A stretch of DNA of 64,000 nt from Thermodesulfobacteriota bacterium (GTDB taxonomy: Bacteria; Desulfobacterota_D; UBA1144; Nemesobacterales; UBA2774). The notes under the pieces are model-generated. The model ran no database searches and had not been told where the DNA came from. It was given only the letters and a program-made list of their open reading frames with translations. The position numbers were made by a program, and so were the translations under genes. The DNA lies in assembly GCA_021604765.1 (NCBI GenBank), contig BQJP01000002.1:40191-104190 (forward strand). Reading direction: 5' to 3'. Position 1 is the first letter of the stretch; each line of letters begins with the position of its first letter. Of this stretch, positions 19,744-31,545 are shown piece after piece.

Positions 19744-21120
19744 CTATACAGACTGTCCTTTACCATCTAATATAGCTATTAGTTGCATATATCTTAGATC
19801 AACGTCTTCTCTATCCAGTTGCTCAGGTAATGACTCATCGCTACTTCTCTTTATCATTTCTGCATGCTGTCCGATTGCCTGTTTATCTTTATCTCTACTT
19901 GTGTTGGAAGCAATTACAATCAAACTTTCCAGAAGACGAATGGTTACAGAAACACTGTTTCTTCCATATTGACGTATTTGGTTAAATGCAGAATTTAACA
20001 AATCATCAAAAGTCTTTGGTTTGGCCAAAACTCTTAAATTATTATTTTTATCATAGCGATAAGCTGATGGCGTAGATCTTCCAGCTACCCTGCTGAGTGC
20101 TACAGAAAGATTATCTATACACATAATAGCAGTAAAAGGGTCATTGATTCCTGGGGAAAGAGCTCTGACCGCGATCTCAACAAGTTGATCTATAGCAAAT
20201 TCCGTATCCTGCTCACTTGTTCTCTTATTGCCAATTAATAAAGTACTACTAATGTTATTCTGGATTTCATCATCGACTTTACTTCCTGGCCATACTGTAA
20301 CTATGGGGCTACCTTTGACAATAAAATTTCCAGGATGATTTTCTATTCTGAGAATAAGGTCTTTTTCAATTGCAATATCGAGGACCCCTGCATTATCAAT
20401 GACTCGTAGGTAGCCACTTTTAGGTGAGGTAACTGAATAGAGATCATCCTCATAGTCAACGGGTAATTCACTAGGTGTATTCCACCAATCCGGTAACTCA
20501 GTTTTTGCTTGACCTATTCTCTCAGGAAATGTGAAGTCAATTGTACGTTGAAGATTTCGACTCACACCTGAAATTACATTTGAAGCTTGGATAGAAGTTG
20601 CAGCGTGATGAATGAAATAAATTAATACACTTATACTTAAGATAGCAAATACTACACCAACAGTAACAGAGAGATGCGGGACAAAAGAACTATCTTCCCC
20701 CCCTCTTATGGTGCGTAATATCAATAGGCAGTAAGTGAATGTGGCAATGAAAGTTCCAAGTACTACTTGATTTCCCTTATCTCGCATAAAGTTGCCGAGT
20801 AGTCTTGGACCGTATTGAGTAGAGGCTAGCGTTAAGGCAACGATTGTTATCGAAAAGACCACACCAGCCACTGTAATCATAGAGCCCGCAACTGTTGAGA
20901 GAAGCGCACGCGCCCCTTCCGGTTTATTTTCATAAATCCACCCCAGCGACTCGATCCAGCTAACTTTTATAACATTGGCATCCAGATAAATCATTATAAA
21001 TGATAGTAATATTGAAGAAGAAACCATTAAAGCGGGTAAGAACCAGAAGCTTGCACTGACGGTGTACCAAATAGCTTTTACAAACCAAAATACGGATTTA
21101 ATGTTTTTCAAAAAACTCAA
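19744..21120 (-). CDS. DUF2254 family membrane protein
   Basis: SFWFLPAL, LASTQYGPRLL and RALSPGINDPFTA motifs. Confidence 0.88.
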   Translation of the reverse strand: MSFLKNIKSVFWFVKAIWYTVSASFWFLPALMVSSSILLSFIMIYLDANVIKVSWIESLGWIYENKPEGARALLSTVAGSMITVAGVVFSITIVALTLASTQYGPRLLGNFMRDKGNQVVLGTFIATFTYCLLILRTIRGGEDSSFVPHLSVTVGVVFAILSISVLIYFIHHAATSIQASNVISGVSRNLQRTIDFTFPERIGQAKTELPDWWNTPSELPVDYEDDLYSVTSPKSGYLRVIDNAGVLDIAIEKDLILRIENHPGNFIVKGSPIVTVWPGSKVDDEIQNNISSTLLIGNKRTSEQDTEFAIDQLVEIAVRALSPGINDPFTAIMCIDNLSVALSRVAGRSTPSAYRYDKNNNLRVLAKPKTFDDLLNSAFNQIRQYGRNSVSVTIRLLESLIVIASNTSRDKDKQAIGQHAEMIKRSSDESLPEQLDREDVDLRYMQLIAILDGKGQSV

Positions 21121-21293
21121 TATTTAGGCCCAGTCCTCATTGCTTTTCAGGTTCTTAGTTTTGATAATAACATATTTTAGAGAGCATTTTATTAGTATAG
21201 AAACCGTCGATAAAGTCAAAAATAAAGCGGCTCATCGAGCATAAATCGACAAACCGCTGAATGTTTGTTGTTATAACAAAATTTAATACATGT

Positions 21294-21458
21294 TCATGCC
21301 GGCGGTCGTCTTCCAAAAATAAGAGAAATTACGAACACTACCAAAAAAACGACGAATAATATTTTCGCTATACCAGCTGCTGCTCCTGCAATCCCAGTAA
21401 ATCCTAAAAACCCAGCAATCAATGCTAAAACTAAGAATGATATTGCCCAACCTAACAT
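21294..21458 (-). CDS. DUF1328 (YtjA/UPF0391) small membrane protein, absent from the ORF track
   Basis: Translated by hand: [61 protein letters not shown]. Confidence 0.9.
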
Positions 21459-21648
21459 AATCGCTTACCTCTTTTTGATTAAATTAACATCTTCTTAAAA
21501 ACAGTTCGCGAGAATTCGTTCTTTCAGAATAACAAAATACAGGTTATTAAAACCAAATAGGAAATAGGATATCCTCCTTCTAAGATTCACCCATTTCCCT
21601 TTTTGATTTTTCCTTAGGAACTCATTTTTATTCCCATCTAATCTATTA

Positions 21649-22296
21649 TTAATTAGATCCCGGATCTACTACTACTTGCTCAGACTCTACCGATTCTGAA
21701 ACTGACCAAGCTTCAAGATGTTTATTTATACCATAAGGTTTCCCGTCTCTGACGTTAACAATAACAATGTCACCAACTTCAATGGTTTCAGCCTGAAGCT
21801 CTTCCATATCCTGCTTGCCTGTAACCTTCACAGAATGCATGGAGCCATCTTTACTCTTAAACTTGATTTTGTCACCGTCAACCTCAGTAACTCTACCCTT
21901 TACTGTAGTTGTATTTGCAAGATCGGGTAAATCTACATCTGGCATATCTAGATCTACAGCCCAAGGCTCTGCTACTTTAGAGATCGCATAAGGTTTAGCG
22001 TTTCTAGACATTACTACAACTCTATCCCCTACTTCAAGGGTTTCGACTTGTAATTCTTGCATATCCTGGAATCCAGTAACATTGACTTTATGCATATTAC
22101 CGTCTTCGTCTTTAACCGTAATTGAATCTCCGTCTATGGCAGTCACTTTTCCGGATACATCACCATATTCATTTGTATCATTGCTTACTTCTGCCGTAGC
22201 TGCTGAATCTTTACTGTGATCTTCGTCTGCAAAGGAATTTACTCCATAAACGAGAAATCCCATTACTAAAATAGTGGATAAAATGATTTTACTCAT
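21649..22296 (-). CDS. Secreted protein with two OB-fold-like repeats
   Basis: Signal peptide; duplicated GKVTAIDGD..V.G.QDM.ELQ.ET.EVGD unit; start set at the ATG after GGAGGTG. Confidence 0.7.
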   Translation of the reverse strand: MSKIILSTILVMGFLVYGVNSFADEDHSKDSAATAEVSNDTNEYGDVSGKVTAIDGDSITVKDEDGNMHKVNVTGFQDMQELQVETLEVGDRVVVMSRNAKPYAISKVAEPWAVDLDMPDVDLPDLANTTTVKGRVTEVDGDKIKFKSKDGSMHSVKVTGKQDMEELQAETIEVGDIVIVNVRDGKPYGINKHLEAWSVSESVESEQVVVDPGSN

Positions 22297-22332
22297 ATTT
22301 ATCACCTCCGTAATTTTGATATTTAAGTAAAG

Positions 22333-22348
22333 TGCAACAAGCATGCCA
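22333..22348 (-). promoter_or_regulatory. sigma-54 (-24/-12) promoter
   Basis: TGGCATG-CTTG-TTGCA, 37 bp upstream of the 22296 start. Confidence 0.8.
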
Positions 22349-22431
22349 CTTTGTATTTGATGTGATATTTGCTGTGATAACAGTAGTTTCAGAATATATA
22401 CGGGAGTTAGAAAAAAGGTGATTCCAATATT

Positions 22432-22471
22432 TGTAGGATCTTTAACAGTTGTATATGTGTATATGTGATCA
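22432..22471. promoter_or_regulatory. Candidate tandem enhancer sites (UAS)
   Basis: TGTAGGATCTTTAACA (22432) and TGTGTATATGTGATCA (22456), 24 bp apart. Confidence 0.5.
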
Positions 22472-22589
22472 AAAATAATCTAGATAATGGGCAGATCACA
22501 ATTCAACATATCTAATACAAATATGAGATATAAAAATTGAGTTCGCATTAAAGCACAATGAAAATGGGGAAATTTTTAATGTGGTAAAA

Positions 22590-30162: not shown

Positions 30163-30223
30163 TTAGATATTTAGACTATCACGAAAGCAATATATAGTTA
30201 AATCTGTTTCCACAACTAAAATA

Positions 30224-30550
30224 TCATTTATTATTTGTATCTATAATTTTTCCTAAAAATAGACCCAGAATAAAAGCTATCAGCAAGCTGAGTAAAGGTT
30301 TCTCAGTTATTCTATCTTCAACAGATTCTAAAGCACGACTTCCCTTATTCTTGGATTCCTCTATGGCACCCTCAAGTTCATCAAGCAGTTTAGCTGCTTC
30401 TAATTGTGCTTTTTCTTTCGCAGCTCCACTTTCATCTTTACCTAATTCAATTAACTTCGTAGTCGTTGAAGAAAGATCAGAACGCAGCTTAGCTACATCT
30501 GCTTTAAGTACTTCAAAATCCTTTGAAACATCATTTTTTTTAGTAGACAT
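30224..30550 (-). CDS. DUF883/ElaB/YqjD-like tail-anchored protein
   Basis: Coiled N-terminus and C-terminal EKPLLSLLIAFILGLFLG anchor. Confidence 0.75.
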   Translation of the reverse strand: MSTKKNDVSKDFEVLKADVAKLRSDLSSTTTKLIELGKDESGAAKEKAQLEAAKLLDELEGAIEESKNKGSRALESVEDRITEKPLLSLLIAFILGLFLGKIIDTNNK

Positions 30551-30608
30551 ATAAAACCTCCTGGGATGATTTCAAGCTATAAATGCGATTTTATATAAAA
30601 CAAAAAAT

Positions 30609-30935
30609 CTATTCAGTTTTTTTCTCATCCTCACCATCATTAGTATCAGGCATATCTACCTCTAAGGTAGGAACTTCAACTATCTTCTCTTCCATAACAA
30701 CTTTTGGTACTGTAACTGTTTTCTTTTCTGTCTTTATATCTACATCTGCTATATCAATATCGTAGTCTGGGAGCTTTCCACTCTCAACTTCAACATTTAC
30801 ATCAGGCAGCTCGCCTTCTTCTGTTTGCTCTATACTACATGATGCCTGCAACATTAAGGCTAATACTAGTGCAGGAACTATTATAAAATATTTAACAGCA
30901 AACCAGTCTTTCTCATTATTCTTTTCGTTGTGCAT
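30609..30935 (-). CDS. Acidic lipoprotein (stress-cluster associated)
   Basis: Lipobox QASC; EQTEEGELPDV...GKLPDYD...VPKV motif; RBS GGAGGTG. Confidence 0.7.
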   Translation of the reverse strand: MHNEKNNEKDWFAVKYFIIVPALVLALMLQASCSIEQTEEGELPDVNVEVESGKLPDYDIDIADVDIKTEKKTVTVPKVVMEEKIVEVPTLEVDMPDTNDGEDEKKTE

Positions 30936-30971
30936 TCGATACACCTCCTAATTGTTTGTACCAATTAGTTA

Positions 30972-30987
30972 TGCAAAATGTATACCA
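30972..30987 (-). promoter_or_regulatory. sigma-54 (-24/-12) promoter
   Basis: TGGTATA-CATT-TTGCA upstream of the lipoprotein-DUF883-MscS-MscS run. Confidence 0.72.
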
Positions 30988-31070
30988 AAAAAATAATGAG
31001 AAGAAATATTTAATGATATAAAATAGTTAGAAGTATTTACATATCAAATCTTTACTTGTATTGGATCTAT

Positions 31071-31110
31071 TGTTGAAAAATATACAGATACTACTGTTTC
31101 CGATTCAACA
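31071..31110. promoter_or_regulatory. Candidate tandem enhancer sites (UAS)
   Basis: TGTTGAAAAATATACA (31071) and TGTTTCCGATTCAACA (31095), both TGT-N10-ACA, 24 bp apart. Confidence 0.55.
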
Positions 31111-31320
31111 AATTTTCATAAGAATACTGTGTTTAAAAATTAACATTATTGAATAATCTTAAGAGAATTAGAAATAATAGTTTTTGATATGGAGCATAAA
31201 ATGTTTTATATGATCTGAGCTTAAGTATATCTAGAAAGATTTAGCATATTTGAGAAAACTAACCCCATATTGCCATATATTGGCAATTTATATTCACTTT
31301 ATAAAAAATTTACATCCTTA

Positions 31321-31545
31321 TTATTTTTTTATATTGAAAGACACATTCAGTTTTATCTGAAATTCTCTAACCGCCCCGTCAACCAATCTACCTCTCTGAT
31401 CTAGAACCTGATACCATCCTTCCCCATCTAAGGCCTGATTTTCATTTTCGAGACAAGATTTTGCATCTTCAATAGCTATCTTTATTGCATCCTCATAGCT
31501 TTTATCTGATACTCCAACTACTTCAATCATTCTATAACTTGCCAT
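31321..31545 (-). CDS. Dodecin family flavin-binding protein
   Basis: YRMIEVVGVS.KSYEDAI...WYQV...RG...V.EFQ.KL.V.F. Confidence 0.85.
   Translation of the reverse strand: MASYRMIEVVGVSDKSYEDAIKIAIEDAKSCLENENQALDGEGWYQVLDQRGRLVDGAVREFQIKLNVSFNIKK

Follow-up and report, generated by a model that had tools for sequence, protein, structure and literature searches.

Here we examine a 64,000-nucleotide stretch of the genome of a Thermodesulfobacteriota bacterium (GenBank assembly GCA_021604765.1, contig BQJP01000002.1, positions 40,191 to 104,190; hereafter the window, with the genome referred to as G000), focusing on a cluster of stress-protein genes arranged around a sensor histidine kinase and an NtrC-type activator, which is very likely a real, conserved two-component regulon dependent on sigma-54. 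Proteins of the CsbD/YjbJ, DUF1328/YtjA, ElaB/YqjD (DUF883) and YciF families, together with MscS paralogues, typically belong to the RpoS, SigB or EcfG general stress regulons. Pfam matches within the cluster comprise DUF1328 (two copies), CsbD, DUF3309, DUF892/YciF, two MscS proteins, DUF2254, a HAMP-HisKA-HATPase kinase and a REC-Sigma54_activat-HTH_8 regulator, in agreement with the CsbD, DUF1328, YciF and MscS assignments made in an earlier note on this DNA from its letters alone.

The units of the cluster are named here after the predicted promoters (P1 to P5) ahead of them. The P1 operon (21294-22296, minus strand) encodes a secreted protein of two small-barrel repeats (21649-22296) and the first DUF1328 protein (DUF1328a, 21294-21458). 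The secreted protein (215 aa) lies in a longer open reading frame (ORF; 21649-22344) whose true start is at 22296, with a ribosome-binding site and a signal peptide there; its Pfam small-barrel matches are sub-threshold and its Atlas look-alikes score 0.89, both being leads only. Behind P2, a membrane-anchored protein of the endonuclease/exonuclease/phosphatase fold (Pfam Exo_endo_phos) is encoded on the plus strand at 22621-23676, followed by the P3 operon (23710-25244, minus), which runs from the second DUF1328 gene (DUF1328b, 25080-25244) through a 70-aa unknown (24843-25055), CsbD (24626-24823) and DUF3309 (24330-24482) to DUF892/YciF (23710-24210). The P5 operon (28372-30935, minus) encodes a 108-aa unknown (30609-30935), a DUF883-like tail-anchored protein (30224-30550) and two MscS proteins (29272-30162 and 28372-29259). 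The tail-anchored protein (108 aa) had been assigned to ElaB/YqjD; it is DUF883-like by language-model look-alikes only, the nearest being DUF883 clusters at a score of 0.93, and gave no Pfam match even at E≤5, including to PF05957 and PF19029 of the DUF883 family. Its C-terminal membrane anchor, as in DUF883, can be read from the sequence. Finally, a DUF2254 membrane protein (Pfam; 19744-21120, minus) counts only as a candidate member of the regulon, because a terminator-like hairpin at 21226-21258 separates it from the P1 operon upstream; DUF2254 is also linked to the cluster in G013 and in one metagenome contig.

At the centre of the cluster, as the earlier note had it, stand the kinase and the activator on the plus strand. 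The kinase (25620-26939) consists of a transmembrane segment, an outer loop of about 55 aa, a second transmembrane segment and HAMP, HisKA and HATPase domains, with the H-box HEIRNPL. The activator (26956-28332) is an enhancer-binding response regulator with REC, AAA+ and HTH_8 domains (PF00072; PF00158 Sigma54_activat, E 1.8e-64, 216.9 bits; PF25601, AAA_lid; PF02954, HTH_8), and the aspartate within IIDLKLPDMDG of its REC domain, in a region that aligns across orthologues, is on our reading the phospho-acceptor. The gene for sigma-54 itself, rpoN, was found on G000:C19 as a complete 505-aa ORF with AID, CBD and DBD domains. Furthermore, a loop of the GAFTGA type is present in nine or more activators of the genome, which also contains 63 exact matches to the -24/-12 pattern defined below.

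The sigma-54 promoter consensus, TGGCAC-N5-TTGCW, contains a GG and a GC doublet separated by 10 nt. Both strands of the window were searched for the exact pattern TGGYAY-N5-TTGC, which occurs six times against 0.47 expected (standard deviation 0.69), a number reached in none of 100 shuffles; the stricter TGGCAC-N5-TTGC occurs only at 25300(-) and 25532(+), against 0.08 expected. Only exact sites were counted, because allowing one mismatch adds 11 more and brings the total to 17 versus 11.6 expected, which is near chance. Five of the exact sites belong to the cluster, and none is more than 1 nt away from the position first proposed for it. P1 (TGGCATGCTTGTTGC, 22334-22348, minus) is predicted to serve the secreted repeat protein and DUF1328a, P2 (TGGTATATATTTTGC, 22590-22604, plus) the membrane Exo_endo_phos protein, P3 (TGGCACGTACATTGC, 25300-25314, minus) DUF1328b, the 70-aa protein, CsbD, DUF3309 and YciF, P4 (TGGCACCATTGTTGC, 25532-25546, plus) the kinase and activator operon itself, implying autoregulation, and P5 (TGGTATACATTTTGC, 30973-30987, minus) the 108-aa unknown, the DUF883-like protein and both MscS proteins (MscS2, MscS1). 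All five are intergenic and face the next gene, as had been claimed, with a start codon, by sequence reading, 17-75 nt downstream; a Shine-Dalgarno sequence lies between site and start codon for P1, P3, P4 and P5, and in each of the five the base after the motif is A. P2 and P5 are identical at 14 of 15 motif positions and share the next five bases, ATAAC (TGGTATAYATTTTGCATAAC; 22590-22609 and 30968-30987), a likeness that hints at recent copying or at a strong constraint common to both, although P2 is not kept in other genomes.

The cluster and its promoters recur in related genomes. Orthologous kinase/activator pairs (54-77% and 63-72% identity, respectively) accompanied by the same stress genes were found in G004, G013, G012, G017, G020, G047 and G048, and a metagenome scan yielded 34 loci, of which 13 were kept (kinase identity 53-77%; GC content 0.33-0.57); counts below refer to these 20 other loci, seven from genomes and 13 from metagenome contigs. 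Left out were 21 metagenome loci with kinase identity ≤43% (L125-L134, L138-L148), as well as a C10-type paralogue and the G049 locus (45% kinase identity), which have sigma-54 sites but other neighbours. The genome loci carry one to six exact sigma-54 sites each, at equivalent places. The P4 site of the kinase operon is exact in 20/20 other loci, which fits the positive feedback proposed from its position; the P3 site of the CsbD/DUF1328 operon is exact in all 15 that include the operon start; and the P1 site is exact, in the same place, in all five that hold the secreted-repeat gene. A site ahead of the MscS operon is clear in G013, where the equivalent of P5 stands before an operon of a Rieske/FAD oxidoreductase and two MscS genes; in two more contigs, a same-strand site is found 1.9 kb upstream. 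The expectation that the motifs would be conserved in orthologous clusters is thereby borne out for P4, P3 and P1 and fails for P2 (see below).

Of the ten genomes of the genus, two encode a kinase orthologue (≥54% identity), as do 7 of 7 in g4 and the single genome of g5; the window-kinase query returned none in g2 (10 genomes), g3, g6 or g7. A kinase match at E≤1e-110 occurs in 11 of 120 genomes of the class, and the same query against a genome-contig collection found only distant kinases of 20-34% identity. The closest relatives of the activator are 72% (G004), 67% (G013) and 62-63% (G017, G012, G020) identical, and nearly all members of the family have an activator paralogue of 57-59% identity. 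Judged by these comparisons, the regulon and its promoters are kept in three or more genera of a single family. For the island activator, identity within the genus is 72% (G004), versus 94-95% for the vertically inherited paralogue, a divergence that would fit transfer or old allelic divergence in a flexible part of the genome.

Upstream of the promoters, a palindrome was first seen when promoter regions were read side by side, and a script that looked only for the half-sites CTGT and ACAG then collected candidate sites. Counted from the TGG, these CTGT-N10-ACAG sites concentrate at -100/-102, -124/-125 and -149, frequently in pairs spaced by 24 bp, and give the consensus CTGTTGAATATTCAACAG. 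With at most one mismatch allowed in the eight outer positions and a location of -152 to -86, a site precedes 13/24 cluster promoters versus 4/58 other sigma-54-like sites of the genome, three of these four belonging to a locus on C11 with a paralogous activator. In the window, one candidate site (22431-22448) is common to P1 (-100) and P2 (-159), two sites 24 bp apart (31070-31111) lie at -100 and -124 from P5, and a degenerate one (25385-25402), whose inner 12 nt match the consensus, lies between P3 (-88) and P4 (-147). Across the kinase promoters of eight genomes, the invariant columns lie in a ACTGTTTA block, which adjoins 25385-25402, a middle block ATCATT and TGGCA...TTGC. Genome-wide, matrix hits of at least 11 bits (217) paired with a relaxed -24/-12 motif occur only in the cluster, in the C11 locus and in two weak places; the regulon therefore looks self-contained, as had been proposed, with one further locus that has its own activator.

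Two observations accompany these sites. The ATCATT...AT block (about 25480-25500), kept in the eight genomes in the stretch that separates the upstream sites from the -24 element, resembles the integration host factor (IHF) consensus and could be an IHF-type bending site. The C11 locus (G000:C11:42000-58000), which holds the best matrix matches genome-wide (20.0 and 17.5 bits), has its own kinase and activator (41% identical, loop GSFTDA) and two divergent pairs of sigma-54 sites, with cytochrome c, a Na/H exchanger and unknowns as neighbours; cross-talk between its activator and the stress regulon is possible.

The sixth exact site of the window lies outside the cluster, at 52806-52820(-), and precedes a 77-aa ORF (about 52503-52736, minus) with a good ribosome site. 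This unit is flanked by two 66-nt direct repeats (52388-52453 and 52904-52969) that are 89% alike. The site has no CTGT-N10-ACAG partner, and the divergent neighbour (52977-54446) is a metallo-beta-lactamase-fold protein with a Tat signal, not an activator.

Beyond the wiring of the cluster, the sigma factors of the genome bear on its physiological role. G000 (3.4 Mb) has 27 Sigma70_r2 matches: one RpoD (527 aa), eight RpoD-like proteins of 369-449 aa, one RpoH-like protein and 17 further proteins, most of them ECF-like in size. The eight RpoD-like proteins fall below the RpoS cut-off (216-262 versus 378.7 bits) and also miss that of the SigB model. The earlier note had gone further and read the cluster as a general stress response run by sigma-54 in place of an alternative sigma-70; such a replacement is not supported, because the genome keeps these 27 sigma-70-family matches, the eight RpoD-like and the RpoH-like ones included, and the module reads better as one dedicated two-component stress regulon. 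Judging from gene content, the cue is most likely osmotic, ionic or membrane stress: CsbD, DUF1328, YciF, a DUF883-like protein and two MscS proteins match osmotically induced RpoS genes of Escherichia coli. A metal or redox cue is less likely but plausible, because genes for YHS/TRASH, cupredoxin-like and Rieske/FAD proteins sit behind sigma-54 sites in orthologous clusters; the G004 locus also holds a ferritin-like gene, without an exact site upstream.

The regulon is set within a longer segment that differs between relatives. A contig of the same genus, G002:C9, is colinear with the window at 8000-14413 and 36573-45992, and 1.85 kb (a repeat, one IPTL-CTERM gene and tRNA-Gln) replaces the 22 kb of window 14413-36573. 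Because G002 is colinear on both sides with only this short segment between, 14413-36573 is probably a variable island, bounded by the conserved ABM gene on the left and by tRNA-Gln(CTG) (36573-36646, minus) on the right. Its first segment encodes FG-GAP/ASPIC and P-domain proteins, its second the stress regulon and a dodecin (31321-31545), and its third a small Cys-rich protein, a second YciF, an isochorismatase, an asparagine synthase and a recombinase remnant; the GC content of 22-36 kb is 0.30-0.36, versus 0.384 for the genome.

Three co-oriented 89-nt direct repeats partition this island. Copy 1 (14435-14523, plus), with a core resembling the tRNA-Gln 3' end, forms the conserved left border; copies 2 (19596-19684, plus) and 3 (31868-31956, plus), which are 90% alike, mark the left and right boundaries of the stress segment, and the cluster does lie between them. 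The core aligns with the tRNA-Gln 3' end through a common TGGCTGGGGC (CCA end and acceptor strand) and the T-loop TTCGAAC, and a 14-nt piece of it matches G000 three times, each time in an island copy. The repeat is matched in 15 of 41 genomes including G000 (E≤0.01), mostly of the same genus, and a 26-nt core also occurs in other families. Copies are co-oriented throughout (3/3 in the window, 7/7 in G006:C14, 3/3 in G004:C46 and 4/4 in G028:C62). In G006, seven or more such copies extend over 40 kb beyond the left flank, and the segments of G004:C46 carry a Na/H exchanger, tandem universal stress proteins (Usp), a P-type ATPase and CNNM. Folding of the three copies on both strands gave z-scores of -0.16 to -4.29, and against Rfam the repeat had no match at gathering score, with chance-level matches only (E 1.5-2.7). 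A conserved hairpin RNA in the repeat was considered and rejected, there being no stem compensation in 34 copies and no Rfam match.

Next to the tRNA lies a 5'-truncated gene of a large serine recombinase (35760-36659, plus), reduced to the C-terminal 299 codons and lacking a Resolvase domain. Its 3' end overlaps tRNA-Gln, the frame running antisense through the whole tRNA gene, and in G028 the recombinase gene likewise overlaps the tRNA with its 3' end (L161, 985-1908 versus 926-999). A G003 protein that has both Resolvase and Recombinase domains shares 74% identity with the remnant. Moreover, G028, which belongs to another family, has a near-intact copy, broken by one in-frame TAG, that is flanked by tRNA-Gln/QueF and by a repeat core at a distance of 8.7 kb, and fragments of the same recombinase lie directly beside the core in G004:C46 and about 400 nt from it in G013:C19. 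This anatomy would fit repeated integration or cassette exchange at tRNA-Gln by a serine recombinase family.

Beside the repeats, two further features were recorded. G028:C62:1-7000 contains four core copies (92-100% identical to the window's) at a spacing of about 2 kb, each ahead of one or two same-strand ORFs (e.g. CN_hydrolase), a layout like that of a cassette array. Additionally, small Cys-rich secreted proteins, some with IPTL-CTERM, recur beside island repeats, as in the window (32218-32502, minus, which has no C-terminal sorting signal), in G006:C14 (L045 2121-2498) and in G002:C9 (L085 947-2269).

As a whole, the locus can with good confidence be explained as a two-component sigma-54 regulon carried as cargo of a tRNA-Gln variable island. 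The membrane kinase, which has a HAMP domain and only a short outer loop, would phosphorylate the NtrC-type activator, which would bind the CTGT-N10-ACAG palindromes about 100-150 bp upstream of the five -24/-12 promoters and remodel the sigma-54 holoenzyme, so that transcription would start downstream of each motif. P4, driving the kinase-activator operon itself, would close a positive feedback loop. The output would amount to about 12 genes: two DUF1328 proteins, CsbD, DUF3309, YciF, the DUF883-like protein, two MscS proteins, the secreted small-barrel repeat protein, the membrane phosphatase-fold protein and unknowns. The surrounding island, with its decayed large serine recombinase, would be divided by the three repeats of one orientation that imitate the 3' end of tRNA-Gln. 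Site-specific recombination probably brought the regulon into this island or reshuffled it there, but the regulon is not autonomously mobile now.

Several observations weigh against parts of this account. The activator has the loop GAFTDA instead of GAFTGA; GAFTDA is also found in G004, G013, G012 and the C10 paralogue, with GSFTDA in G017, G020 and the C11 paralogue, and the variant, as in D. vulgaris DVU2106, is listed in Kazakov 2015 (PMC4641369) among those said to keep activity. DUF2254 and the dodecin have no -24/-12 motif of their own. P2 stands only 17 nt from its ATG, and at the P2 place a GG-N10-GC site is present in one of nine loci with the phosphatase-fold gene, namely the window alone. 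The candidate activator site between P3 and P4 has 4 mismatches of 18, and the upstream-site matrix, which scores the C11 locus even higher than the cluster, cannot separate paralogous activators. With regard to the island, no intact recombinase was found among the window proteins by Pfam, and no recombinase remnant beside repeats 1-3 (best blastn E 0.004 over 31 nt). The middle of the repeat core differs from the tRNA-Gln end and is 5 nt longer, and the right arm of a possible hairpin varies without compensation in 34 aligned copies. The 20-kb orthologous loci of G012, G013, G017 and G020 contain no tRNA, and the 13 metagenome contigs contain no repeat copies. Nor were copies found in the four g4 genomes searched, apart from one partial match on another contig in G013, the g4 and g5 loci themselves not having been scanned directly. 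Of the portable module bounded by attachment (att) sites that the earlier note had described, what stands is a repeat-bounded segment of a tRNA-Gln-linked island with a decayed serine recombinase; portability as such does not follow, given the lack of an intact recombinase, repeats that are not simple tRNA copies, and clusters in other genera without repeats or a tRNA within 20 kb.

Other explanations divide over the promoters, the signal and the repeats. That the -24/-12 matches arose by chance or are non-functional, the genes being read from sigma-70-type promoters, is very improbable. The region is AT-rich, a consensus scan of 19300-32300 returns 46 sigma-70-like sites, and a TTGTAT...TATAAT-like arrangement can be seen by eye before the phosphatase-fold gene in G012, G017, G020 and G048; however, 46 is fewer than the 52.6 expected from shuffles, which makes the scan uninformative, and five exact sigma-54 sites, with less than one expected in the entire window, together with where these sites stand and how they are kept over contigs spanning GC 0.33-0.57, speak for sigma-54. 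A different proposal concerns the signal: the pair may be a ZraSR-like sensor of metal or envelope stress, with the small proteins serving as envelope protectants. The layout does resemble ZraSR, sigma-54 sites of the orthologous clusters in G013 and G017 drive a protein with a YHS/TRASH metal-binding domain, another target of such a site in G013 is a cupredoxin-like protein beside the kinase promoter, and the widespread C10-type paralogue lies beside cupin and YHS-domain genes. Yet the window regulon has no metal-binding domain, the outer loop of the kinase is short and the effectors correspond to the osmotically induced RpoS set of E. coli noted above, leaving metal or envelope sensing unlikely.

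A further alternative concerns the repeats. Even with a real regulon, the 89-nt elements might be a lineage-wide intergenic element (a protein-binding site, a promoter-like element or a small RNA) that flanks by coincidence a cluster of ordinary chromosomal DNA in a fast-evolving region, a possibility that we take seriously while not favouring it. Such an element would accord with the 92-100% retention of the 26-nt core in G028, a member of another family, upstream of and in the same sense as units of one or two genes at a spacing of about 2 kb; with the conserved part, which within the genus extends more than 50 nt past the core and includes a TTGNAT-N18-TATTAT arrangement read by eye; with the lack of hairpin covariation and of an Rfam match; and with orthologous clusters that occur elsewhere without repeats. 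It accords less well with the uniform orientation of copies within an island, the restriction of the 14-nt core matches in G000 to island copies, the alignment of the core to the tRNA-Gln 3' end, the recombinase fragments near the core in G004:C46 and G013:C19, and the G028 arrangement, where tRNA-Gln, the near-intact recombinase, cargo and core form one 8.7-kb unit. Recombination sites are, in our estimate, a plausible function for the repeats, falling a little short of an even chance. A bolder version, in which the whole regulon (sensor, activator, five promoters with their enhancers and about 12 effectors) travels as one cassette of a tRNA-Gln-targeting serine-recombinase island, with the pseudo-tRNA repeats as joints, is doubtful. 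If true, the cassette would be plug-and-play, needing only the recipient's rpoN, and the order-wide repeat arrays would represent a new kind of cassette system without an integron integrase.

A sigma-54 regulon of this composition matters in several respects. CsbD, DUF1328, YciF, DUF883 and DUF3309 proteins are taken to mark sigma-S, sigma-B or EcfG stress responses, although functionally they are poorly characterized; a tight, conserved unit with one kinase, one activator and defined candidate enhancer sites makes these families directly testable. The cluster also indicates that a sigma-54 circuit can take over this set of effectors, and the tRNA-Gln island with its decayed serine recombinase offers a concrete example of possible whole-regulon exchange between relatives. 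Among the article titles and abstract openings surveyed, none describes a sigma-54 regulon of CsbD, DUF1328, YciF and DUF3309.

The RpoS, SigB and EcfG regulons involve the same protein families as the window cluster, but they are scattered and governed by an alternative sigma-70-family factor, whereas the window genes are clustered behind sigma-54 sites with a dedicated activator. Closer in layout is ZraS/ZraR-ZraP of E. coli and Salmonella, with an NtrC-type pair, divergent sigma-54 promoters sharing upstream sites, autoregulation and an envelope output. The window differs in having an output of about 12 genes in four further units rather than one periplasmic chaperone, in lacking a ZraP/CpxP-family protein and a periplasmic metal-sensor domain, and in its GAFTDA loop. 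The ZraSR system is also mentioned in PMC12316311. In D. vulgaris Hildenborough, the sigma-54-dependent response regulator DVU3305 is called general-stress responsive (Rajeev 2011, PMC3333781) and, according to excerpts of PMC3333781 and PMC4641369, binds its own operon and an adjacent operon of membrane and hypothetical proteins at a site kept in orthologues. DVU3303-3305 is thus like the window in its sigma-54-dependent regulator, its own and neighbouring operons as targets and a conserved site, and unlike it, within those excerpts, in its UspA-type targets and Lon-protease response regulator, CsbD, DUF1328, YciF and MscS not being named there for it. For Planctomycetia, sigma-54 control of MscS genes (COG0668) has been predicted (PMC12316311); as in the window, MscS lies behind predicted -24/-12 promoters, whereas that result is a statistical enrichment across genomes, for which the part of the article drawn on describes no regulator, upstream site or co-regulated stress proteins.

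The island, too, has counterparts. Recombinase-less cassette arrays are known, such as integron CALINs (clusters of attC sites lacking integrases) and pdif modules of Acinetobacter. Compared with tRNA-linked islands that site-specific recombinases have built, the one described here has a large serine recombinase, truncated in the window, in place of a tyrosine integrase, and repeats that are not exact tRNA copies, yet it shares with them a variable segment at the side of a tRNA gene, co-oriented repeats similar to the 3' end of this tRNA, a recombinase gene that abuts it and cargo varying between close relatives.

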